Source of the DNA: an uncultured Planctomycetia bacterium | GTDB taxonomy: Bacteria; Omnitrophota; Gorgyraeia; Duberdicusellales; 4484-171 | Reading direction: 5' to 3' | Length of the DNA: 24,000 bases | Assembly (NCBI GenBank): GCA_964536865.1 | Contig: CAZHYN010000013.1 | Coordinates: 19,100 to 43,099 of the forward strand | Part shown: positions 1 to 13,908 of the stretch, piece by piece | Numbering within the stretch: the stretch's first letter is position 1 | How the letters are laid out: every line of letters starts with the position of its first letter | Position numbers and translations under genes: made by a program | Notes under the pieces: model-generated | What the model was told of the DNA's origin: nothing | The model's database searches: none | Seen by the model: only the letters and a program-made list of their open reading frames with translations

Positions 1-624
1 ATAATGATTCTTATGAGTAATTTTTTTCTCGGCCCCTGGAGAGACAGTTCTAACTTTTTGTTAAAAATTCTATGGTTTATGATTCTTCTTGGTATAGCTG
101 TAGGGGCATTTTTATCTTTTAAATTATTCATAACTACTCCTGGAGGAAGACGTTGGTGGGATAATGCTAAATTTAGAATGTATATATTTGGGAAAATCTA
201 TAAAAAAATAACTATGCTTAGGTTTGCTTCAATGCTCAATGTGCTTTATCAGGCAGGACTTCCCATTCTTAATATTCTGGATGTTGTAAAAATCACTATT
301 GGGAACGTGGTGTTAGCTAAAGAGTTGGATAATGTAAAAAGGTTTGTAGCTGATGGTAAAGGAATTTCTGGAGGTCTTTTAGGTAGCAAATTATTTCCCC
401 CACTAGTTTCTTATATGGTCTCTGTAGGAGAAAAGGCAGGGGCATTATCTACTATGCTTGATTCTCTATGTGAGTACTATTCCTTAGAAGTAAGAACTTC
501 TCTAAAAAACTTAACCTCTTTGATTGAGCCTATTATGACTTTAGTTTTAGGGGTAGTGATAGGAGGAATGGCTTTAGCGATATTCCTGCCTATGTGGAAT
601 TTGATTTCTATTATCCGAAGATAA
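1..624 (+). CDS. pilC: Type IV pilus / T2SS inner-membrane platform protein, PilC/GspF family, C-terminal part (5' end outside window)
   Basis: Frame 1 is open from base 1 to TAA 622-624. The translation shows a GspF-type repeat (LNVLYQAGLPILNILDVV, SYMVSVGEKAGALSTMLDSLCEYY) and a terminal TM helix (IEPIMTLVLGVVIGGMALAIFLPMWNL). A pilin gene lies 3 kb downstream. Confidence 0.8.
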   Translation: MMILMSNFFLGPWRDSSNFLLKILWFMILLGIAVGAFLSFKLFITTPGGRRWWDNAKFRMYIFGKIYKKITMLRFASMLNVLYQAGLPILNILDVVKITIGNVVLAKELDNVKRFVADGKGISGGLLGSKLFPPLVSYMVSVGEKAGALSTMLDSLCEYYSLEVRTSLKNLTSLIEPIMTLVLGVVIGGMALAIFLPMWNLISIIRR

Positions 625-1434
625 GTGATTTTTGGTTTTTTAATAGGAATAGTTATTCTAATAATTTATATTATTATCTCTTCCTGGTGGTGGAGAAGAA
701 AATTACATTTTTATGTTAAAAAATCTCGAGAAGAGGAAGCTAGACTCATTCATCTAGAGAAAATGGCCTCTTTAGGAACTTTAGCTGCTGGAGTAGCTCA
801 TGAGATTAATAATCCTTTGACCTTTCTTCTTACTAATCTAGGACTCCTTTCTCACTATATAAAAGAGGAGAAGAGAGTCAAAGAAGAGTTACAAAAAGAA
901 ATAAGTGTAATTTTAGATGAGTGTAACGAAGGAGTGAATAGAATAAAGAGGATTGTTCAAGATCTGCTTTCTTTTTCTCACCGCTCACGAGGTAAAAAAG
1001 TTTCTACAAACATCAATGAGTTGCTGGATGTAAGTATAAGAATTCTATGGAATGAGATAAAGTATAAGGTTGATATAGTAAAAAATTATGAAGCAGTAAC
1101 TCCTCTTCGGATAGATCCTAATCAACTAAGTCAAGTATTTTTAAATATAATCATCAACGCTACTCATGCAGTAAAGAATAAAGGGACAATTTTTCTTTCT
1201 ACCCAAGAGAATGAGAAGGAATTTATCATTAAGGTTTCTGATACAGGAGAAGGAATTCCTAAAGAAGTTCTTCCCAAGATTTTTGAACCTTTCTTTACTA
1301 CTAAGGGAGGTACGGGTTTAGGACTCTATGTAAGCAAAAATATTGTGGAGAATATGGGGGGTAGGATAGAAGTAGAAACTCAATTGGGAGAGGGTAGTAC
1401 ATTCACTATTTTTCTGCCTAAAGTTAAAAAATAA
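625..1434 (+). CDS. Sensor histidine kinase (one N-terminal TM helix, HisKA + HATPase_c, no recognisable sensor domain)
   Basis: GTG 625 directly abuts the pilC stop. H-box AAGVAHEINNPL, N-box NIIINATHA, G1 DTGEGI, G2 GGTGLGL. Confidence 0.85.
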   Translation: MIFGFLIGIVILIIYIIISSWWWRRKLHFYVKKSREEEARLIHLEKMASLGTLAAGVAHEINNPLTFLLTNLGLLSHYIKEEKRVKEELQKEISVILDECNEGVNRIKRIVQDLLSFSHRSRGKKVSTNINELLDVSIRILWNEIKYKVDIVKNYEAVTPLRIDPNQLSQVFLNIIINATHAVKNKGTIFLSTQENEKEFIIKVSDTGEGIPKEVLPKIFEPFFTTKGGTGLGLYVSKNIVENMGGRIEVETQLGEGSTFTIFLPKVKK

Positions 1435-1455
1435 TTTCTTTAAGAGAAAAGTGCT

Positions 1456-1809
1456 ATGGGAGTAGAGAAAAGAAAGTATCCTAGGGTTAAGGTTAAGTTT
1501 TCCGTAGAGTATAGGGGGAAGAATGTTTGGCAAAACGCTGAGATTGACAATATCTCCAGAGGGGGGATGTTTATTGTTACGGAGAAGATAGAGCCACCAG
1601 GAACAAATATAGAGCTTATTTTTGAACTAGGAGAAAGTAAGAGGAAGATCCAAGCTCAAGGAGTAGTGGTGTGGACACGTACTCAATCTCAGCACAATCA
1701 TGAAGGTAGGCTTCTCCCTCAGGGTATGGGAGTCCAATTCACCAAAATTTTCCCTGGAGAAGCAGAAAATTTTTTGGCTGATTTAATAGAGAAGTGGAGA
1801 GATGGATAA
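1456..1809 (+). CDS. PilZ domain protein (stand-alone c-di-GMP receptor)
   Basis: Canonical PilZ motifs: RxxxR (RKYPR) and (D/N)xSxxG (DNISRGG) about 22 residues apart, on a roughly 117-aa beta-barrel-sized protein. Confidence 0.8.
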   Translation: MGVEKRKYPRVKVKFSVEYRGKNVWQNAEIDNISRGGMFIVTEKIEPPGTNIELIFELGESKRKIQAQGVVVWTRTQSQHNHEGRLLPQGMGVQFTKIFPGEAENFLADLIEKWRDG

Positions 1810-2374
1810 ACATACTATTCTCGTTGTAGATGATGAGCCTAATATAGTTTCTTCCCTAAAGAGGGTTCTTGCCTCCGAGGATAGAGAGATTTTATCTGCC
1901 TATAGTGCTGAAGAGGCTTGGAGGCTTCTTCAAGAGAAGGGAGAAGTAGAGGTAATTATTTGTGATAATAAATTACCGGGAGCCTCTGGCGTAGAATTCC
2001 TTTCCAAAGTAAAAACTGCTCATCCCCACACAGTAAGAATTCTTATTACTGGTTATCCTGATTTGACCAGTGTTGCAGAGGCAATAGATAAGGCAGGCAT
2101 CTGGCGGTACCTCTTAAAGCCTGTAGAGATAGAGGAGTTAAAAACTTTAGTAAACCAGGCTTTTGGTTACTATAGGATTTTAAAAGAAAATCAAATTCTT
2201 TTTGATATCGTTTGTCAACAAGCGGAGTGGCTTAAGGTATTAAGAGAAAAGTATCCTGAGATTGTGTCCCGGGAAGTAGAAGAAGGGAAGATAATTGATA
2301 TAGAATGGAGAGAAGCTTCTGACACAGTTAGAAAATTCATAGAAAAGTACTACCTTCACAAAAAAGGAGAATGA
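1802..2374 (+). CDS. Response regulator: CheY-like receiver domain plus ~70-aa uncharacterised C-terminal domain (no DNA-binding or GGDEF/EAL motif seen)
   Basis: VVDDEPNI acidic pocket, phospho-acceptor context IICDNKLPGASG, TGY and LLKP signatures. ATG 1802 overlaps the PilZ stop (1807-1809) by 8 nt. Confidence 0.85.
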   Translation: MDKHTILVVDDEPNIVSSLKRVLASEDREILSAYSAEEAWRLLQEKGEVEVIICDNKLPGASGVEFLSKVKTAHPHTVRILITGYPDLTSVAEAIDKAGIWRYLLKPVEIEELKTLVNQAFGYYRILKENQILFDIVCQQAEWLKVLREKYPEIVSREVEEGKIIDIEWREASDTVRKFIEKYYLHKKGE

Positions 2375-3183
2375 AAGAGTTAGAAAAAAGATTGGTAAAA
2401 GAAGGATGGGTTACCTCTGCTCAACTTATAAAAGCTAAGGAAGAGCAGAAGAAAAAAAAGAAGAAATCCTTATTCTCTGTTTTAGTAACTTTGGGATATC
2501 TAAGTGAAGAGGATATTTACCTATTCTTTGCTCAGAGTGCTCAGATACCTTTTGTAAGGCCAGGCGATTATCTTTCAGATGAAGAACTTTTTAATCTTTT
2601 TTCCGAAGACTTCTATCGGGAGCATCTTTTTGTTCCTCTCTTTAGAATAGGAAATACTCTTTACATTGGGACTGCTAATCCCCTGGATACAGAGTTTATG
2701 GATACCTTAAGGAAGCATACTAATTTAGATATCTTTCCTCTATTTGCCTCTCCTTCTTCTATCTTAGAGGCAATAAATCGTGTATTTGGGCCAGAGAAAG
2801 TATACTTACAGTTAGAGGAGTTAGTTAGTTTCTCTCCTTCATTAAGTATACTACCCTTAGGAAGAGAATCTGAAAGGATAGTGATAAATACACCTGTAGA
2901 GTTTAAAGTTATTGACAAGAGGATAACTTTAGCATCTTCTCAATATCTAAAGGGAACTGCTTTGAATATTTCTCAAAGTGGTAAGGGGGTAGGGATAAGG
3001 ACTTTTCTTTTTCTTCCTTCTGGAGCAAAGATTCTTCTAAAGTTTCCTTCATTCGATCCTAATTGTGAATTAGAAGCAGAGATAACCCACTGCAGAATGG
3101 AACAAGGTTATTATTTCTTAGGAGTGAAATTTCTCCAAACAAGAAAAGATTTATTAAGATATTTATTGGAAGAAAAAAAATAA
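2371..3183 (+). CDS. Fusion protein: N-terminal T2SSE_N/MshEN-like domain + C-terminal PilZ domain
   Basis: The N-terminus resembles the GspE/PilB N-terminal domain (LVKEGWVTSAQLIKAKEEQ..., VLVTLGYLSEEDIYLFFAQSAQIPFV). The C-terminus has RxxxR (RESER) and NxSxxG (NISQSG). ATGA start/stop overlap with the response regulator; RBS AAAGGAGA at 2363-2370. Confidence 0.65.
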   Translation: MKELEKRLVKEGWVTSAQLIKAKEEQKKKKKKSLFSVLVTLGYLSEEDIYLFFAQSAQIPFVRPGDYLSDEELFNLFSEDFYREHLFVPLFRIGNTLYIGTANPLDTEFMDTLRKHTNLDIFPLFASPSSILEAINRVFGPEKVYLQLEELVSFSPSLSILPLGRESERIVINTPVEFKVIDKRITLASSQYLKGTALNISQSGKGVGIRTFLFLPSGAKILLKFPSFDPNCELEAEITHCRMEQGYYFLGVKFLQTRKDLLRYLLEEKK

Positions 3184-3225: not shown

Positions 3226-3255
3226 TTGACAGAGCAGAATTTTATATGTTATACT
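3226..3255 (+). promoter_or_regulatory. Putative sigma70-type promoter driving the riboswitch leader
   Basis: TTGACA 3226-3231, 18-nt spacer, TATACT 3250-3255. The predicted start lies about 35-40 nt upstream of the aptamer closing helix. Confidence 0.4.
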
Positions 3256-3296
3256 TAAATTGAAGCTCTTTATATTAAGGATTTATACTTTTATTA

Positions 3297-3480
3297 TACT
3301 ACTCGACAAAGGCAAACTCGTGGTAACACGAGGGCGCAAAGCCGTGCGTCCCGCTCTTTCTAAGACCCAGATTAACAGGGGTTTGAAGTTAAAGTGCATA
3401 AGGGATGCAGAGGCAGGTAAACTGCAGGATTTAACTAGAAATATGAAAAGGGCGGGATAGGCAGGTTGCCGAAAGTAGTA
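3297..3480 (+). promoter_or_regulatory. c-di-GMP-I (GEMM-I) riboswitch aptamer with an enlarged P2 arm
   Basis: 3308-3343 AAAGGCAAAC-TCGTG-GTAA-CACGA-GGGCGCAAAGCC matches the GEMM-I 5' core (GGCAAAC, GNRA-capped hairpin, GCGCAAAGCC). 3451-3471 GGCGGGATAGGCAGGTTGCCG matches the 3' core (..GGUAGGUAGC..GGUUACCG). Closing helix is TACTACT 3297-3303 / AGTAGTA 3474-3480. The P2 base TCCCGC(3349-3354)/GCGGGA(3452-3457) encloses about 95 nt. Confidence 0.75.
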
Positions 3481-3494
3481 TTTATTTTTTATTT

Positions 3495-3540
3495 AAGCCG
3501 AACTACTTTAGCCTTTAGGAGAGTAGTTCGGCTTTTTTGT
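3495..3540 (+). terminator. Rho-independent terminator (riboswitch expression platform)
   Basis: Perfect 13-bp stem AAGCCGAACTACT (3495-3507) / AGTAGTTCGGCTT (3522-3534) whose 3' end runs into a T6 tract (3533-3538). Confidence 0.8.
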
Positions 3541-3559
3541 TCTCCGAGAGATAAAAAAC

Positions 3560-3588
3560 TTGACTTACTCTTAAAAAGCTGATATTCT
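3560..3588 (+). promoter_or_regulatory. Possible second promoter immediately upstream of the pilin RBS
   Basis: TTGACT 3560-3565, 17-nt spacer, TATTCT 3583-3588. The -10 is weak, so this is tentative. Confidence 0.3.
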
Positions 3589-3612
3589 TAATAAAGAAAG
3601 GAGGTGAGTAAG

Positions 3613-3972
3613 ATGCGCAGAGGTTTTACTCTTATTGAATTAATTATGATTATCGTTATCATTGGTATTTTAGCAGCTATTGCTATCCCTAAATTTATTG
3701 ACTTAAGAACTGATGCCCAAAAGGCTTCTTGTTTTGGTAGTGCTGCAGCAATTCAAACTGCTCTTTCTAACTATTATGCCCGCCAGGCTATAAAAGGAAG
3801 CCCTGGTTTTCCTAGCACCTTACATGATACATCCTTTACTAGTGAGTATTTCACTGAAGCTACTCTTCCTGATCATCCCAAAGGATGGGATTGGGATACC
3901 TATTATAGCAGTAATACCGGGGCTCTTCATACTGGTAAAGGGGCAGATAGCGGAGCCTGTACAAACTTTTAA
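3613..3972 (+). CDS. pilA: Type IV pilin (prepilin-type N-terminal cleavage/methylation domain)
   Basis: MRRG|FTLIELIMIIVIIGILAAIAIPKF is the class III signal peptide with G-1, F+1 and E+5. RBS AAAGGAGG ends at 3604, 8 nt before ATG 3613; the ORF-track GTG 3604 sits inside the RBS. 119 aa, with two Cys residues. Confidence 0.85.
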   Translation: MRRGFTLIELIMIIVIIGILAAIAIPKFIDLRTDAQKASCFGSAAAIQTALSNYYARQAIKGSPGFPSTLHDTSFTSEYFTEATLPDHPKGWDWDTYYSSNTGALHTGKGADSGACTNF

Positions 3973-3995
3973 TAGCTGAGTTCCTAAGACTACAT

Positions 3996-4023
3996 AAACC
4001 CCGCTTTTTTAAAAGCGGGGTTT
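3996..4023. terminator. Bidirectional intrinsic terminator between convergent pilin and GT-C/TPR genes
   Basis: AAACCCCGCTTTT / AAAAGCGGGGTTT palindrome followed by TTTATTATTTTT on the + strand. It overlaps the last codons (KPRF*) of the minus-strand gene. Confidence 0.6.
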
Positions 4024-5901
4024 ATTATTTTTATCTCTAAGAATAAGCTTACTTAAGGAGAGGGCAGGCCTAAATTGAGGGTTAAGACTAATTGTTTTTT
4101 CTAGCTCCTTTAAAAAGAGTGGATTCTTCAATTTCATATAAACCAATGCCAGAGCATAATGAGAATAATACCAGTCAGGTTTAATTTCTATAGATTTCTG
4201 GTAAAGCTGTTGGGCTTTGTGTAAATCTCCCTTTTTCTCATAAATTTTTCCCCATAGAAAGTAAGAGTAGAATTCAAAAGGGTTTATTTCTATAGCTTTT
4301 TTTATATATCTTTCTGCCATAGTTAGCTTATTTTCCTCTATATAGATTCGTGCTAACGCTTGGTAAGCTCGTTCACTGTAAGGATTTAATTTTAGAGCTT
4401 TGTTTAAATAATAAAGAGCCTTCTCTTTATCGTTCTTTTTTTCGTAAAGAGTGGCTAAGTTAGTATAGATCTGATATACTCTTGCTTGGTTAGGTTCTAG
4501 TTTTAAAGCTTCACTTAAATATTTTATTGCCTCATCATATTTTCCTTCCATGAAGTAAGTACCTGCTAAATTAACATATATTCCCGCCTTCCAATCTATA
4601 TCTTTGGTAGAGATAGTCAGAGCCTTAAAAAATATTTTCCTTGCCTTTTTTAAATACCCCTTCTCTTTATAACTTACCCCTAAATTTAGCCAGTTTCCTA
4701 TATGTTGGGGCTCTTTTTCTGTGCCTTTTCTCCACACTAAGGTAGGATAGTTAAGTTGACAATTTCTTTCCACAGTGAATATAGATAGAATGAAGATTAC
4801 TCCTAATGCAGGATACAAAAAGTATCTTTTGTTTTTTATATAAAAATTTTTAAAAACCTCCATCAGAATTATGTATATACCTATACTGGGAAGATAAAAG
4901 TGGTGTTCCATAGCAGGTACTTTTAAGGTCGCATAAAACTTCGGAAGAAGCATTAAGAGATACCAAAAAACCCCTAAACTTAAAAGATATATTCTTTTTC
5001 TTAAGAGTAGAAGAGTAAATACAAGAATAATTATTCCCATCAAAGGAAAAAAACCTTGAGGTTGAAGAATAGAATTTAGCTGAGGGTAATAATGCAGGAA
5101 ATTAAGATTATCGGGAAATAAAAATAATCTCAGATAGAAAAAGCTTACCCAACTTTGAATAAGAATATTAGAAAGCGGACTCCTTAATCCTCCAGGAGTA
5201 ATTCCCTTAAAGAAGGCTTTTTTGTAAAGAAAATAGAGGAGAGAAATAGTGATGAGAGAAAATAAAAGAAAAATATTCTTCTTCTCTTTAAAAGTGAATT
5301 TAAGACTCCTATATTGATAAAGAAGGTAGTGGCCTCCTATCAAAAGCGGAAAACATAGCCCTGTTTCCTTAGTTAGCAGAGAAAATACATACAGTAAACA
5401 ACTTAAAGCATATCTTTTCTTTAAATAAAGTAAGAATCCCCCCAAAATAAAAAAAGTTACCATCAAATCCGACCTACTAGATATGTAACTGACCGCTTCG
5501 GTATTTATAGGGTGAACTAAAAACAAAAGGATTATAAGAAAGGCTAAGGTTTTGGGGGTATCTTTTTTTAGAGAAGTTAATAAAAAGTAGAGAAGAGTAG
5601 CATTTAAGAAGTGAAGAAGAACATTTATGATGCGGTACCCCACAGGGTTAAGACCTCCACCCCAATAATTAAAAGCAAAACTAAGCATAAGAAGAGGTCT
5701 ACACATTCCTTTGGGGATGGGGTAGCTGGTAACATATCCTTTAAAAAACAGAGGGAAGTATTTTGGATTTTTTATGAAAGTATTTTCTTCTATCATATAG
5801 TAGTCATCGAAGATAAAGGGAGCATTAAGAGCACTGCTATAGGTAAGAAGAGAGATAACTACTAAAGAAAGTATTACAAGATAATCAATTTTACTTTTCA
5901 C
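4009..5901 (-). CDS. TMTC/PMT-like GT-C fold glycosyltransferase (polytopic N-terminal domain) fused to C-terminal TPR repeats, paralog 2
   Basis: About 390 aa of hydrophobic helices with the first-loop acidic motif FIFDDYYMIEEN (GT-C DD/DE loop, as in TMTC and PMT/ArnT families). These are followed by about 6-7 TPR units (e.g. AIKYLSEALKLEPNQARVY, ALYYLNKALKLNPYSERAY). GTG start 5899-5901 overlaps the upstream paralog's stop by 11 nt. Confidence 0.7.
   Translation of the reverse strand: MKSKIDYLVILSLVVISLLTYSSALNAPFIFDDYYMIEENTFIKNPKYFPLFFKGYVTSYPIPKGMCRPLLMLSFAFNYWGGGLNPVGYRIINVLLHFLNATLLYFLLTSLKKDTPKTLAFLIILLFLVHPINTEAVSYISSRSDLMVTFFILGGFLLYLKKRYALSCLLYVFSLLTKETGLCFPLLIGGHYLLYQYRSLKFTFKEKKNIFLLFSLITISLLYFLYKKAFFKGITPGGLRSPLSNILIQSWVSFFYLRLFLFPDNLNFLHYYPQLNSILQPQGFFPLMGIIILVFTLLLLRKRIYLLSLGVFWYLLMLLPKFYATLKVPAMEHHFYLPSIGIYIILMEVFKNFYIKNKRYFLYPALGVIFILSIFTVERNCQLNYPTLVWRKGTEKEPQHIGNWLNLGVSYKEKGYLKKARKIFFKALTISTKDIDWKAGIYVNLAGTYFMEGKYDEAIKYLSEALKLEPNQARVYQIYTNLATLYEKKNDKEKALYYLNKALKLNPYSERAYQALARIYIEENKLTMAERYIKKAIEINPFEFYSYFLWGKIYEKKGDLHKAQQLYQKSIEIKPDWYYSHYALALVYMKLKNPLFLKELEKTISLNPQFRPALSLSKLILRDKNNKPRF
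5338..5778. repeat. 441-bp block, copy A, identical to 7313-7753 (direct repeat, offset 1975 bp)
   Basis: Base-by-base comparison of the two stretches found no mismatch. Identity breaks sharply at both ends (5337 c vs 7312 a; 5779 a vs 7754 g). Confidence 0.95.
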
Positions 5902-7870
5902 TTTTTCTGAGGTTATCCTCTATTATCTTCAGAAATTCGTTATCTACTCTAAACCCTAAAGATTTAGCAATCAAAGCATACTTTCTTGCCAAATCCCATC
6001 GGGGAGGAATTAAAGAAGCATAAACTACAGCTAAGTCATTATAAGCAGGGGCAAAACTAGGGTCAATGCTAATTACTTTTTTAAATTCGGAGAGTGCTCT
6101 GCCATCTCCTATTCTTGCATAAAGAGTACCTAAATAGTAATGAGAATTCCGATGCTTGGGATTAAAGTATATTGATTTTTTGTACATCTCTATTGCTTTT
6201 TTATAGTTGTTTTTCTCTTGAAAGATTTGTGCTAAACCATAATAGCCTCCATAGTAAGTAGGATTTATCTGAATTGCTTTTTTAAACATTTCTTTTGCTT
6301 TAAAAAGATTTCCTTCCTTAAGGTAAAAGAAGGCTAAGTTACATCCAGCTTCCACAGAGGCAGGGTAGAGCTGTAGTTCTCTAAGCCAGGCTTCCTCAGC
6401 CTTCTTTTTCTTACCCATTTTTGAATAAATGATCCCTAATAAATTATAACTACCCATAGGCGGAATTTTCACTGATTTGGTAGCATCGTTTATTAACTTT
6501 AACGCTTTTTCGTATTTTCTCTGTTTTATGTAGATGTGCGCTAAATTGCCTCTAGCATTAACTATACTCTCTATCCTATCTGCAGTATTTATTGCTTTTA
6601 TAAATTCTTTTTCTGCTTGGAATGTGGCTCCCATCTTTAGATACACCAGTCCTAACTGATTAAGAATGGTTGCTGATTTAGGGTTTCTCTGTGCAGAGAT
6701 TTTCCAGAAAACTAAGGGATTTCTGTATTCATAGCTTCTAATTAGAGTAAAAGATGCCAAGATAGAGATAATTCCTATAACGAAATAGGTAAAGTACTTG
6801 GTATACTTTAGATAGATTCTTCTTAAGATACTTATCAAAACTATATAGATGCCTATACTAGAAAGATAAAAATGGTGCTCCATAGCAGGGAAGCTAAGCC
6901 GGGCATAAAATTTGGGAAGCAAACCTATAAGCAGCCAGCTTAATCCGATACTTATTAAGAAGTTCTTCTTAATAAAGAGGAGAGCTAAGATAATTAAACC
7001 TACTATTCCTAAGGTTGAGAATAATACAGGGAAATGAAAAAGAGAACCAAACTCCGGAAGATAGTGAATGATATTTAAGGAATGAGGGAGAACGAGTAAT
7101 TTAAAGTAAAGAAGAGTTACTACCGACTGAAGAAGAATGTTTTGGTAGTAAGAACGAGGTATCCTTGCAGGAGTGGAGGAAAAGACCTTCGATTTATAGA
7201 TGAGATACAGTAAAGTAATTAAAACTATTCCTATGTAGACAAACTTTCTTTTCCCTATATCTTTTTTAGAAAGAGGATAGTCTTTTATAAAGTAGATAAA
7301 CTCATAGCTTAATATCAAAAGCGGAAAACATAGCCCTGTTTCCTTAGTTAGCAGAGAAAATACATACAGTAAACAACTTAAAGCATATCTTTTCTTTAAA
7401 TAAAGTAAGAATCCCCCCAAAATAAAAAAAGTTACCATCAAATCCGACCTACTAGATATGTAACTGACCGCTTCGGTATTTATAGGGTGAACTAAAAACA
7501 AAAGGATTATAAGAAAGGCTAAGGTTTTGGGGGTATCTTTTTTTAGAGAAGTTAATAAAAAGTAGAGAAGAGTAGCATTTAAGAAGTGAAGAAGAACATT
7601 TATGATGCGGTACCCCACAGGGTTAAGACCTCCACCCCAATAATTAAAAGCAAAACTAAGCATAAGAAGAGGTCTACACATTCCTTTGGGGATGGGGTAG
7701 CTGGTAACATATCCTTTAAAAAACAGAGGGAAGTATTTTGGATTTTTTATGAAGGTGTTATTTACAATCATATGGTTGTCATCAAATAGGAAAGATCCAT
7801 TTAAGGAAGGTAGGTATATAAGAAAAGATAGACTTGCAAAAATAATTATAAAGATTTTCTCTATTTTCAT
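5891..7870 (-). CDS. TMTC/PMT-like GT-C fold glycosyltransferase fused to C-terminal TPR repeats, paralog 1
   Basis: Same architecture as the neighbour (FLFDDNHMIVNN loop, multi-TM core, TPR tail such as AIEMYKKSIYFNPKHRNSHY). 147 aa are identical to the neighbour and the rest is roughly 35-40% identical by eye. Confidence 0.7.
   Translation of the reverse strand: MKIEKIFIIIFASLSFLIYLPSLNGSFLFDDNHMIVNNTFIKNPKYFPLFFKGYVTSYPIPKGMCRPLLMLSFAFNYWGGGLNPVGYRIINVLLHFLNATLLYFLLTSLKKDTPKTLAFLIILLFLVHPINTEAVSYISSRSDLMVTFFILGGFLLYLKKRYALSCLLYVFSLLTKETGLCFPLLILSYEFIYFIKDYPLSKKDIGKRKFVYIGIVLITLLYLIYKSKVFSSTPARIPRSYYQNILLQSVVTLLYFKLLVLPHSLNIIHYLPEFGSLFHFPVLFSTLGIVGLIILALLFIKKNFLISIGLSWLLIGLLPKFYARLSFPAMEHHFYLSSIGIYIVLISILRRIYLKYTKYFTYFVIGIISILASFTLIRSYEYRNPLVFWKISAQRNPKSATILNQLGLVYLKMGATFQAEKEFIKAINTADRIESIVNARGNLAHIYIKQRKYEKALKLINDATKSVKIPPMGSYNLLGIIYSKMGKKKKAEEAWLRELQLYPASVEAGCNLAFFYLKEGNLFKAKEMFKKAIQINPTYYGGYYGLAQIFQEKNNYKKAIEMYKKSIYFNPKHRNSHYYLGTLYARIGDGRALSEFKKVISIDPSFAPAYNDLAVVYASLIPPRWDLARKYALIAKSLGFRVDNEFLKIIEDNLRKSEK
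7313..7753. repeat. 441-bp block, copy B, identical to 5338-5778
   Basis: See copy A. It encodes residues FIKNPKYFPLFFKGY...TKETGLCFPLLI in both paralogs. Confidence 0.95.
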
Positions 7871-8911: not shown

Positions 8912-9985
8912 ATGAGTAAGAAAAGGATGTTAATAATTTCTCTCTCCGGAATAGGAAATACTCTGTTAGCTTTACCATTTTTAACCTCATTAAAAGATAA
9001 CTTCTCCTCTGCTCAAATAGATTTGGTGTGTTTAACCCAAGGCATAGTCGAGTTATTAAGCCCCAGGGGCCTTATAGATAACTTTTATGTATTTTCTAGA
9101 AACATAGTCAAAGTTTTATTTATGATTCTTAGATTAAGAAGAAATAAATATCTTTATTCATTTACTATATTTCCTTCCAACAAGTGGCAATTTGATTTAG
9201 TGGCATTTATGATAGGAGCAAGGTATAGGGTCACTCATTGTTATAAGTATAGGAGCAAGATAAACTTAAGTTTTCTTCAAAACATAAGAATTAAGGCAGA
9301 GGAAACTCTTCATGATGTCGAGCAAAATCTAAATTTTTTGAAGATTTTCAATATCAATTCTAGCCAAAGGGAGGTAGAACTATTTTTAGATGATAGAGAG
9401 TTAGCTTTTGCTGAAGATTTTCTTAAAAATAAAGGGTTACAGGAAGCATTCTTAGTTGGTATTCACCCGGGAGGAGGGGGGCGATTAAGTAAAAAATGGC
9501 AGGGAAGGTTTAAAAGGTGGCCAGTGAGCTATTTCTCTAAACTCTGTGATAGGCTAATAGAGCAAAAGGGAACTAAGATCTTAATATTTGGGGGAAGAGA
9601 GGAGAGTGAAATCAAGAAGGAGGTGAAAAGAATAGCTAGTCACAAAGAGAGCCTTTTTATCATTGAGGAACTATCTTTAAGGAGAGTTTCTGCACTCATT
9701 AAAAAATGTAAATTATTTATTTCTAATGATACTGCTTTAATGCATATCAGTGCTGCCTTAGGTGTTTCTACACTAGGTATTTTTGGTCCTACTAACTGGC
9801 GAAGAACCGCTCCTTATTCTAATTCCGGTTATTATATTTCTTCAGATATTCCTTGTTCTCCCTGTTTAAAATATCCCTTTTTTTCTAGTAGCAGTAAGAT
9901 CAAATGTAATAAAGGAGTAAAATGTTTGAAGGAAATTACTGTAGAAAAAGTTATGGATAAATTAAAAGAGTTGAATTTGATATGA
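8912..9985 (+). CDS. GT9-family glycosyltransferase (ADP-heptose:LPS heptosyltransferase-like)
   Basis: N-terminal LIISLSGIGNTLLALPFLTSLK, then GIHPGGGG...KRWP and the C-terminal ISNDTALMHISAALGVSTLGIFGPT signature typical of RfaF/RfaC-type enzymes. Confidence 0.8.
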   Translation: MSKKRMLIISLSGIGNTLLALPFLTSLKDNFSSAQIDLVCLTQGIVELLSPRGLIDNFYVFSRNIVKVLFMILRLRRNKYLYSFTIFPSNKWQFDLVAFMIGARYRVTHCYKYRSKINLSFLQNIRIKAEETLHDVEQNLNFLKIFNINSSQREVELFLDDRELAFAEDFLKNKGLQEAFLVGIHPGGGGRLSKKWQGRFKRWPVSYFSKLCDRLIEQKGTKILIFGGREESEIKKEVKRIASHKESLFIIEELSLRRVSALIKKCKLFISNDTALMHISAALGVSTLGIFGPTNWRRTAPYSNSGYYISSDIPCSPCLKYPFFSSSSKIKCNKGVKCLKEITVEKVMDKLKELNLI

Positions 9986-13304: not shown

Positions 13305-13381
13305 CGGGGCGTAGCTCAGGTGGTTTTAAGAGCACTTGGTTCGGGACCAAGAGGTCAGCAGTTCAAATCTGCTCGCCCCGA
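13305..13381 (+). tRNA. tRNA-Pro (anticodon CGG)
   Basis: Cloverleaf read by hand: acceptor CGGGGCG/CGCCCCG, D-stem GCTC/GAGC with a 12-nt loop, anticodon stem CTTGG/CCAAG with loop TTCGGGA (CGG, G37), T-arm AGCAG-TTCAAAT-CTGCT, discriminator A. CCA is not encoded. Confidence 0.9.
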
Positions 13382-13546: not shown

Positions 13547-13908
13547 GGGGGTGAAAGGGCCTCGACTCAATAAGCAGGGAAGGAGTTGCATGCCAGCGGG
13601 TAGACCAGCTGTTTAAGAGGTCTACACCAAATAAAGGCAACAAGCTATGCCTCTACTCCTGCTTACGCAGTTTGTTAAGCAGGGCTCTTAATCCTGTTTG
13701 TCTCTGACGGGATTAAGGGTTCGGTAAGAGAGACTAGAGGTAGATTCTTAACCTTGGGGATTTACCTCGAAAAATCAACAAGGTTGCTTTCTAACAGATC
13801 CTGTCTCTCGGAGCTGTTAGAGAAAAGATCAAAAGAGAGACTAAGCATGTAGTAGGCTCCTCTTTTAGCTTATTGAGGACGCGGGTTCGATTCCCGCCAC
13901 CTCCACCA
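13547..13908 (+). ncRNA. ssrA: tmRNA (SsrA), one-piece, CCA encoded
   Basis: 5' GGGGGTG pairs with 3' CACCTCC, including the G3:U wobble. T-arm GGACGCGGGTTCGATTCCCGCC, then ACCA. PK1-like GTAGACC/GGTCTAC lies before the tag frame GCA..TAA (13637-13678). Helix-5-like CCTGCTTA/TAAGCAGG carries the stop codon. Confidence 0.92.

Follow-up and report, generated by a model that had tools for sequence, protein, structure and literature searches.

Does the leader of a pilin gene in an uncultured member of Candidatus Omnitrophota contain a cyclic di-GMP (c-di-GMP) riboswitch of a new design, or an ordinary one that has taken up extra sequence? The question is raised by a stretch of 24,000 nucleotides (nt) from contig CAZHYN010000013.1 (positions 19,100 to 43,099), referred to here as the window and numbered from its first letter. 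Between a gene for a MshEN-PilZ protein and the pilin gene, its leader holds a promoter, an aptamer, a terminator, a second promoter and a ribosome-binding site in that order. A first-pass annotation, made from the letters alone, had placed a GEMM-I riboswitch ahead of the pilin gene and saw in its greatly enlarged second hairpin (P2) an expanded architecture that it did not recognize. The reading favored here, with a probability of about 0.72, is that the element belongs to the canonical class I c-di-GMP riboswitches with a GYRA tetraloop and no receptor, that the extra sequence is a recent and probably tolerated insertion, and that the switch would turn pilin expression off.

The stretch 3296–3481 is a class I c-di-GMP (GEMM-I) aptamer in which a large insert, located at the P2 tip, keeps the two conserved halves apart. 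With RF01051, run at curated thresholds, 3301–3379 scored 37.1 bits against a gathering threshold of 35, which places the element in this family (clan CL00126). Nevertheless, the 3′ half of the model was forced into unrelated insert sequence, so that the RF01051 search proposed by the first-pass annotation gave the expected family with a misplaced 3′ half. Another member of the clan, RF03167, aligned all 80 of its model positions over 3302–3474 and left an insert of ~100 nt in the P2 loop; this full-length alignment, from a run at an E-value threshold with permissive filters, scored 58.7 bits against a threshold of 59 (E = 1.9e-13). Because it runs from end to end, the pairing of a 5′ core at 3308–3343 with a 3′ core at 3451–3471 is taken to be correct. 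Both cores, the heptads of the closing helix P1 and the terminator at 3495–3540 are all present as annotated, and the proposal of a GEMM-I riboswitch with a large insert in the P2 tip was upheld by the two Rfam matches, by the contact nucleotides and by comparison with a close relative, both described below.

The layout is that of GEMM-I: the first hairpin contains a 3-nt internal loop and ends in a GNRA tetraloop, an AAA linker and the second hairpin follow, and P1 closes the whole. In P1, TACTACT (3297–3303) pairs with AGTAGTA (3474–3480), and the helix reaches 8 base pairs (bp) when extended to 3296–3303 with 3474–3481. The minimum free energy (MFE) fold of 3290–3545 recovered P1, the GUAA hairpin, P2 with a branched insert and the terminator (z = −5.3). 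Moreover, compensatory changes in the aptamer helices were seen across the window and the comparison loci L010, L148, L082 and L092 (L numbers denote loci fetched for comparison).

Covariance-model alignment identified G3311, A3338 and C3469 as the equivalents of the contact nucleotides G20, A47 and C92 of the Vibrio cholerae Vc2 aptamer (RF01051), as the first-pass annotation had aligned them in arguing for the c-di-GMP type. The interhelical pair C44–G83 corresponds to C3335–G3460 in the RF03167 alignment; the roles of these contact nucleotides have been described (PMC4744006, PMC5888326). The window and Vc2 also have the three-helix junction and the AAA linker in common. The contact nucleotides fit c-di-GMP rather than the GGC, UAU or cyclic GMP-AMP (cGAMP) variants, and the window aptamer is predicted to bind c-di-GMP.

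Two variant classes were considered and rejected. The c-di-GMP-I-GGC variant (RF03167) has the consensus GCGAA, with a G where the window, reading GCAAAG, has A3338, and the score of 58.7 bits falls short of 59; ‘GGC’ is taken here as G20, G47 and C92 from a comparison of both Rfam consensus lines. GEMM-Ib, the 3′3′-cGAMP riboswitch, has A at the G20 position, where the window has G3311. RF03167 is the best-scoring model only because it describes P1 together with a short P2 lacking a receptor.

The same ranking of models, RF03167 above RF01051, was observed for A47-bearing aptamers with a short receptor-less P2 in the window (3302–3474), L137 (3428–3510) and L010 (2230–2308), and Rfam clan competition would therefore label them as GGC variants. 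For annotation, the GGC and UAU variant models can beat RF01051 on aptamers without the variant nucleotides, and RF01051 misplaces the 3′ half of aptamers expanded in this way. In the orthologous pilin leader L148 (909–988), AAGAGCAAAC replaces AAAGGCAAAC, so that A stands at the G20 position while C92 is kept; judged by these two positions, this is the signature of GEMM-Ib (cGAMP type). The best Rfam model for L148 is the UAU variant RF03168 with 69.2 bits, though neither U is present.

The insert is absent from the closest relatives. A genome scan with the upstream protein identified L137, a Candidatus Omnitrophota metagenome-assembled genome, as the nearest (89% protein identity). Its leader is ~93% identical to that of the window and the 5′ half of the aptamer is the same letter for letter, but between GUCCCG and CGGGAU it has a 9-nt loop, AUAUUAUAU, compared with 99 nt in the window. 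Four further samples of this sister lineage (L142–L145) were identical to L137, and the loops on the same GUCCCG/CGGGAU stem are CUAGU in L010 and AAGUGU in L148. The P2 loops of these compact leaders thus span 5–9 nt, whereas promoter, aptamer, stem, terminator, second promoter and the order MshEN-PilZ to pilin are the same as in the window, with L148 alone noted for its A at the G20 position. The cluster of pilins at 90% identity comprises just two types, that of the window and the compact one of L137, and the next pilin relatives beyond it (≤77% identity) are all without the insert.

No conserved GEMM-I subclass with an expanded P2 emerges from these loci, the insert being absent from L137, L142–L145, L010 and L148. 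Lack of conservation in the segment, here delimited as 3354–3452, had been named by the first-pass annotation itself as counting against a distinct architecture, and that part of its proposal is given up. Since there are three compact lineages, parsimony favors a recent, lineage-specific insertion into the apical loop of P2. It has left all core nucleotides and all helices of the aptamer as they were. Most likely, the insert is an expansion that the aptamer tolerates at a site exposed to solvent and variable in length; it would take no part in ligand sensing and would be neutral. Two near-identical riboswitches that differ only by a 99-nt insert offer a natural experiment on the tolerance of the GEMM-I P2 tip.

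Assembly artefact was ruled out as the source of the insert, which is identical in an independent assembly (L141; ERZ27248455) and the 3′ junction of which is also found in a third (L001; SRR7517634). A repeated or mobile element was likewise rejected, as no second copy was found in the 24-kb window, the 148 fetched loci, phage and plasmid collections or viral contigs, a search that did not reach the remainder of the genome. Rfam gave nothing above noise inside the insert at E values up to 10. In the predicted fold, the helix is extended by six pairs (3354–3359 with 3447–3452), followed by a side hairpin (3363–3368 with 3379–3384) and a stem (3387–3393 with 3430–3436) enclosing two small hairpins at 3395–3409 and 3413–3425. 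This branched stem with two hairpins agrees with the three-way junction that had been proposed, except that the GTTAAA strand lies at 3388–3393 and not at 3389–3394. Insert and stem together give a more stable fold than shuffled sequence does (z = −3.9). The predicted pair probabilities of P1 and of the conserved P2 stem are equal with and without it.

P2 stems of variable length were noted in the first description of GEMM (PMC1950547). Pattern scanning of metagenomes, with the candidates confirmed by Rfam (RF01051 or RF03167), yielded ten other expanded GEMM-I aptamers, with 60–95 extra nt at the same P2 site and mutually unrelated sequences. Full-length matches of 139–158 nt were obtained in L018, L026, L043, L050, L092, L093, L105, L115 and L127, and the second aptamer of L082, also with an expanded P2 tip, measures 171 nt; at ~173 nt, that of the window is the longest among the expanded aptamers in the sample. 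The inserts of the ten are mostly simple long hairpins, some of short repeats, whereas the insert of the window is branched. Both L082 and L086 resemble the window in the type of core and in the GUCCCG stem, but have a different insert of ~95 nt. The gap between the cores is 126 nt in the window against a median of 41 nt (5–95% range ~25–58 nt) in the ordinary aptamers that could be resolved, figures to be read qualitatively only, the simple 3′-half finder having failed on 56 of 126 cores and many pattern matches being tandem riboswitches. By these lengths, the aptamer of the window is at the long end of an apparently rare but recurrent variation, and the insert is a lineage-specific enlargement of a site for which length variation had been described, not a new riboswitch design.

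Tandem or clustered GEMM-I aptamers were observed in L082 (8068–8153 and 8234–8404), L026 (four hits) and L073 (three cores). The L082 pair consists of a compact GAAA aptamer with a receptor, followed by the GUAA aptamer with the different ~95-nt P2 insert. In L127, the stretch 9254–9465 matched a group I intron model with 48.4 bits, just under the threshold of 50.

The insert contains a motif resembling the 11-nt tetraloop receptor, UCUAAG with UAUGA, at the positions where the first-pass annotation had seen it (3359–3364 and 3442–3446). The motif equals the family consensus receptor uCUAAg/uAuGa and belongs with CCUAAG...UAUGG and its close variants. The fit does not extend to its location. 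A receptor would be expected to face a GAAA loop at a distance of ~10 bp from the junction; the C–G pair of the motif is base pair 20 from the junction, compared with 10 in the family consensus, the first hairpin is of normal length and its loop is GUAA. No GAAA hairpin with which the motif could dock was found in the MFE fold of the leader. In Vc2, a GAAA tetraloop goes with an 11-nt receptor near base pair 10 of P2; the window has a GUAA loop and, at the place of the receptor, a CCC:GGG helix, beyond which, unlike in Vc2, the branched 99-nt insert lies.

GYRA loops are almost never accompanied by a receptor (PMC1950547). In the present sample, CUAA occupies the normal receptor position in 45 of 66 GAAA-type aptamers versus 2 of 41 of the GYRA type. 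All ten distinct GUAA-type P2 sequences have CC at P2 base pairs 9–12, where the CCC:GGG of the window is located. Costa and Michel reportedly described a helical CC:GG docking site for GUAA loops, and CCC 3350–3352 is likely to be such a site for the GUAA tetraloop. The receptor-like motif thus appears to be without a partner, because it lies 10 bp too far out, the loop is GUAA and a CC:GG site is nearer. A working contact of the motif with the aptamer's own GUAA tetraloop is doubtful, so that of the proposed tetraloop–receptor pair the motif was confirmed and the docking was not.

The expression platform is consistent with competition between P1 and an antiterminator. The segment AAAGUAGU overlaps the 3′ strand of P1 and is the perfect complement of ACUACUUU in the 5′ arm of the terminator; the resulting hairpin has a predicted stability of −7.4 kcal/mol before the 3′ arm of the terminator exists. 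In addition, ACUACUC (3298–3304) in the 5′ strand of P1 is complementary to GAGUAGU (3521–3527) in the 3′ arm of the terminator. A fold with both alternative pairings is only ~6 kcal/mol above the fold with aptamer plus terminator. The terminator 3′ arm, GAGUAGUUC, is invariant in the window, L001, L013 and L010. L137 retains the same antiterminator, while in L010 it is rebuilt from other bases (CCG-AAGU with ACUU-CGG), again via the 3′ end of the aptamer; by eye, L148 has the same strands as L010.

In the proposed mechanism, transcription would begin at promoter 1, with a start near 3262. Without c-di-GMP, AAAGUAGU (3472–3479) would pair with ACUACUUU (3502–3509) of the terminator 5′ arm, the 5′ strand of P1 might also pair with the terminator 3′ arm, and polymerase would continue into the pilin gene. 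When c-di-GMP is bound, it would lock P1 and the junction, and transcription would stop at the terminator that then forms (3495–3540). An OFF switch is predicted because ligand-stabilized P1 would free the terminator. This direction, read from the alternative pairings, is held with reasonable rather than high confidence. The same competition and direction had been put forward in the first-pass annotation, and they gained support from the −7.4 kcal/mol hairpin, the same logic in L137 and its rebuilding in L010.

Promoter 1 is a strong sigma-70-type promoter conserved in L137, L013 and L010. For promoter 2, the hexamers and their spacing are kept after the terminator in five leaders (window, L137, L010, L013 and L148): TTGAC(A/T) is separated from a TAT(T/C)CT-like hexamer, itself following a TG, by a 17-nt spacer whose letters differ between the leaders. 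This conservation suggests that promoter 2 (3560–3588), which had been suspected from the window alone, is a real promoter. The riboswitch would therefore gate only transcripts from promoter 1, and promoter 2 would allow pilin expression that bypasses the switch. Both promoters are predicted to be active.

Several observations weigh against this account. The antiterminator comprises 8 A/U-rich bp, compared with a 17-bp terminator of −22 kcal/mol, and aptamer and terminator coexist in the MFE fold; any regulation would thus need to be kinetic, and the terminator could act in a largely constitutive manner. Since MSHA-type pili are usually promoted by c-di-GMP, an ON switch might be expected. The direction of change, insertion and not deletion, is given by parsimony over three compact lineages. 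A neutral insert, moreover, leaves the receptor-like motif unexplained, the chance probability of which is ~0.2% by a rough estimate. A weak antiterminator next to a strong terminator that is thermodynamically compatible with the folded aptamer would suit a self-contained unit of promoter 1, aptamer and terminator. Such a unit would release a ~280-nt RNA ending at 3540 whatever the ligand level, acting as a c-di-GMP-binding or trans-acting small RNA, while the pilin would be expressed essentially from promoter 2, which is conserved directly after the terminator in all five leaders named above. Nevertheless, the antiterminator pairing is conserved and was rebuilt with other bases in L010, the complementarity of the P1 strands to both arms of the terminator is hard to explain without switching, and the element is always directly upstream of the pilin gene on the same strand, which makes the small-RNA explanation unlikely. 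An ON switch, in which binding of c-di-GMP raises read-through into the pilin gene, is no more probable than that. It would agree with the promotion of MSHA pilus assembly by c-di-GMP via MshE, with the activation of pilA1 by c-di-GMP in Clostridioides difficile and with a locus rich in c-di-GMP receptor proteins. On the other hand, no candidate for a ligand-released antiterminator was found between P1 and the terminator, where 3482–3494 is all A/U, and the only alternative pairings involve the P1 strands themselves, which predict OFF.

Two further explanations concern the insert. It could be an early disabling lesion in a riboswitch that is being lost, and the element is indeed unstable at this locus, looking decayed in L013 and being absent in L005, L007, L003, L139 and L146. 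The core nucleotides, P1, antiterminator and terminator are intact, however, and the same as those of the sister lineage, and the insert sits at the one site of known length variation; loss is accordingly judged very unlikely. Slightly less probable again is a functional module, in which the insert would serve the aptamer, another RNA or a protein as a tetraloop receptor, or would be a nested second sensor, and which would make the whole a new composite riboswitch. Its folding relative to shuffled sequence, the identity of its motif with the consensus receptor and its unchanged state in two assemblies all speak for a function. They are countered by its absence from a sister lineage with an otherwise identical riboswitch and from L010 and L148, by a receptor 10 bp past the reach of the GUAA loop, by the lack of a GAAA hairpin in the leader and of an Rfam match at E up to 10, and by the fact that there is no homologue of the insert and hence no covariation support. 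Least probable of all is a narrower form, in which a recently acquired self-folding module with a partnerless 11-nt receptor has given the riboswitch a new property. This could be docking to another RNA, dimerization, a protein handle or a second input, and a composite riboswitch would then have been caught as it arose between the two sister lineages. A canonical switch with a tolerated insert therefore remains the preferred reading; its parts are located in Table 1.

Table 1. Positions of the riboswitch elements, promoters and adjoining pilus genes in the window
Feature	Position	Strand	Details
Stand-alone PilZ-domain protein gene, same pilus locus	1456–1809	+	Domain match
MshEN + PilZ protein gene, upstream (two c-di-GMP-binding domain types)	2371–3183	+	Domain matches
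Promoter 1 (predicted)	3226–3255	+	TTGACA, 18-nt spacer, TATACT, extended TG; 11/12 consensus positions
P1, 5′ strand	3296–3303	+	AUACUACU
Aptamer 5′ core	3308–3343	+	Covariance-model alignments; includes AAAGGCAAAC, G3311 = G20 equivalent
First hairpin within 5′ core	3317–3332	+	CUCGUG-GUAA-CACGAG, tetraloop 3323–3326
Rest of 5′ core		+	GGC (C3335 = C44 equivalent); GCAAAGCC (A3338 = A47 equivalent)
P2, 5′ strand	3340–3353	+	AGCC, bulged G, UGC, GUCCCG
Lineage-specific insert in P2 tip	3354–3452 (99 nt)	+	Boundaries from alignment with L137
Receptor-like motif, 5′ half	3359–3364	+	UCUAAG, 11-nt-receptor-like
Receptor-like motif, 3′ half	3442–3446	+	UAUGA, partner of UCUAAG 3359–3364
P2, 3′ strand, and 3′ core	3453–3471	+	CGGGAU, AG, GCA, GGUU, G, C3469, CG; RF03167 alignment
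P1, 3′ strand	3474–3481	+	AGUAGUAU; pair probabilities 0.82–1.0
Antiterminator hairpin (predicted)	3472–3509	+	AAAGUAGU (3472–3479) with ACUACUUU (3502–3509)
Intrinsic terminator	3495–3540	+	17-bp stem, then six U; −22.2 kcal/mol
Promoter 2 (predicted)	3560–3588	+	TTGACT, 17-nt spacer, TATTCT, extended TG; 9/12 consensus positions
Pilin ribosome-binding site	3600–3605	+	AGGAGG
Type IV (MSHA-like) pilin gene	3613–3972	+	N_methyl domain; homologues named MshA or prepilin by sources

Terminator-based control of surface-appendage genes by c-di-GMP is familiar from Clostridioides difficile, in which the GEMM-I riboswitch Cd1 is an OFF switch ahead of flagellar genes and pilA1 is preceded by a class II c-di-GMP switch; riboswitches for c-di-GMP are thus already known to control pilin genes. 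The window element resembles both in this respect; the pilA1 element belongs to the other structural class and is an ON switch. The present element would extend riboswitch control of pilin genes by c-di-GMP to Candidatus Omnitrophota, an uncultured phylum, and the pilus locus in which it lies codes for protein receptors of the same ligand as well. With PilZ and MshEN proteins encoded in the locus, protein and RNA receptors of c-di-GMP are found side by side. The upstream part of this locus (4–3183) encodes a PilC-like T2SSF protein, a histidine kinase, the stand-alone PilZ protein, a response regulator and the MshEN-PilZ protein.

The riboswitch differs among orthologous pilin loci: the window has the expanded form, L137, L010 and L148 have the compact one, and L005, L007, L139 and L146 have none; it is also absent in L003 and L014, where the pilin gene sits in another context. 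The leader of a 77%-identical pilin in L013 (1–340) still has both promoters and the terminator, as well as the ACUACUC segment. Its GEMM-I core is degraded, with AAAGGUAAGU and no CGCAAAGC, and gave no Rfam match at E < 0.05; from these remnants, it looks like a decayed riboswitch.

Downstream of the pilin gene, a strong hairpin of 14 bp flanked on either side by U/A runs (3994–4025) lies between the convergent pilin and tetratricopeptide repeat (TPR) genes and is probably a bidirectional terminator. The adjoining minus-strand region (4009–7870) encodes two large TPR-repeat proteins of 630 and 659 amino acids. This order of TPR and pilin genes is kept in L005, L007, L142 and L144; the TPR gene of L146 and L148 shares the strand of the pilin gene. 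Further along the window, a tRNA gene (13305–13381; 61.5 bits) was found directly upstream of a tmRNA gene (13547–13908; 167.8 bits).

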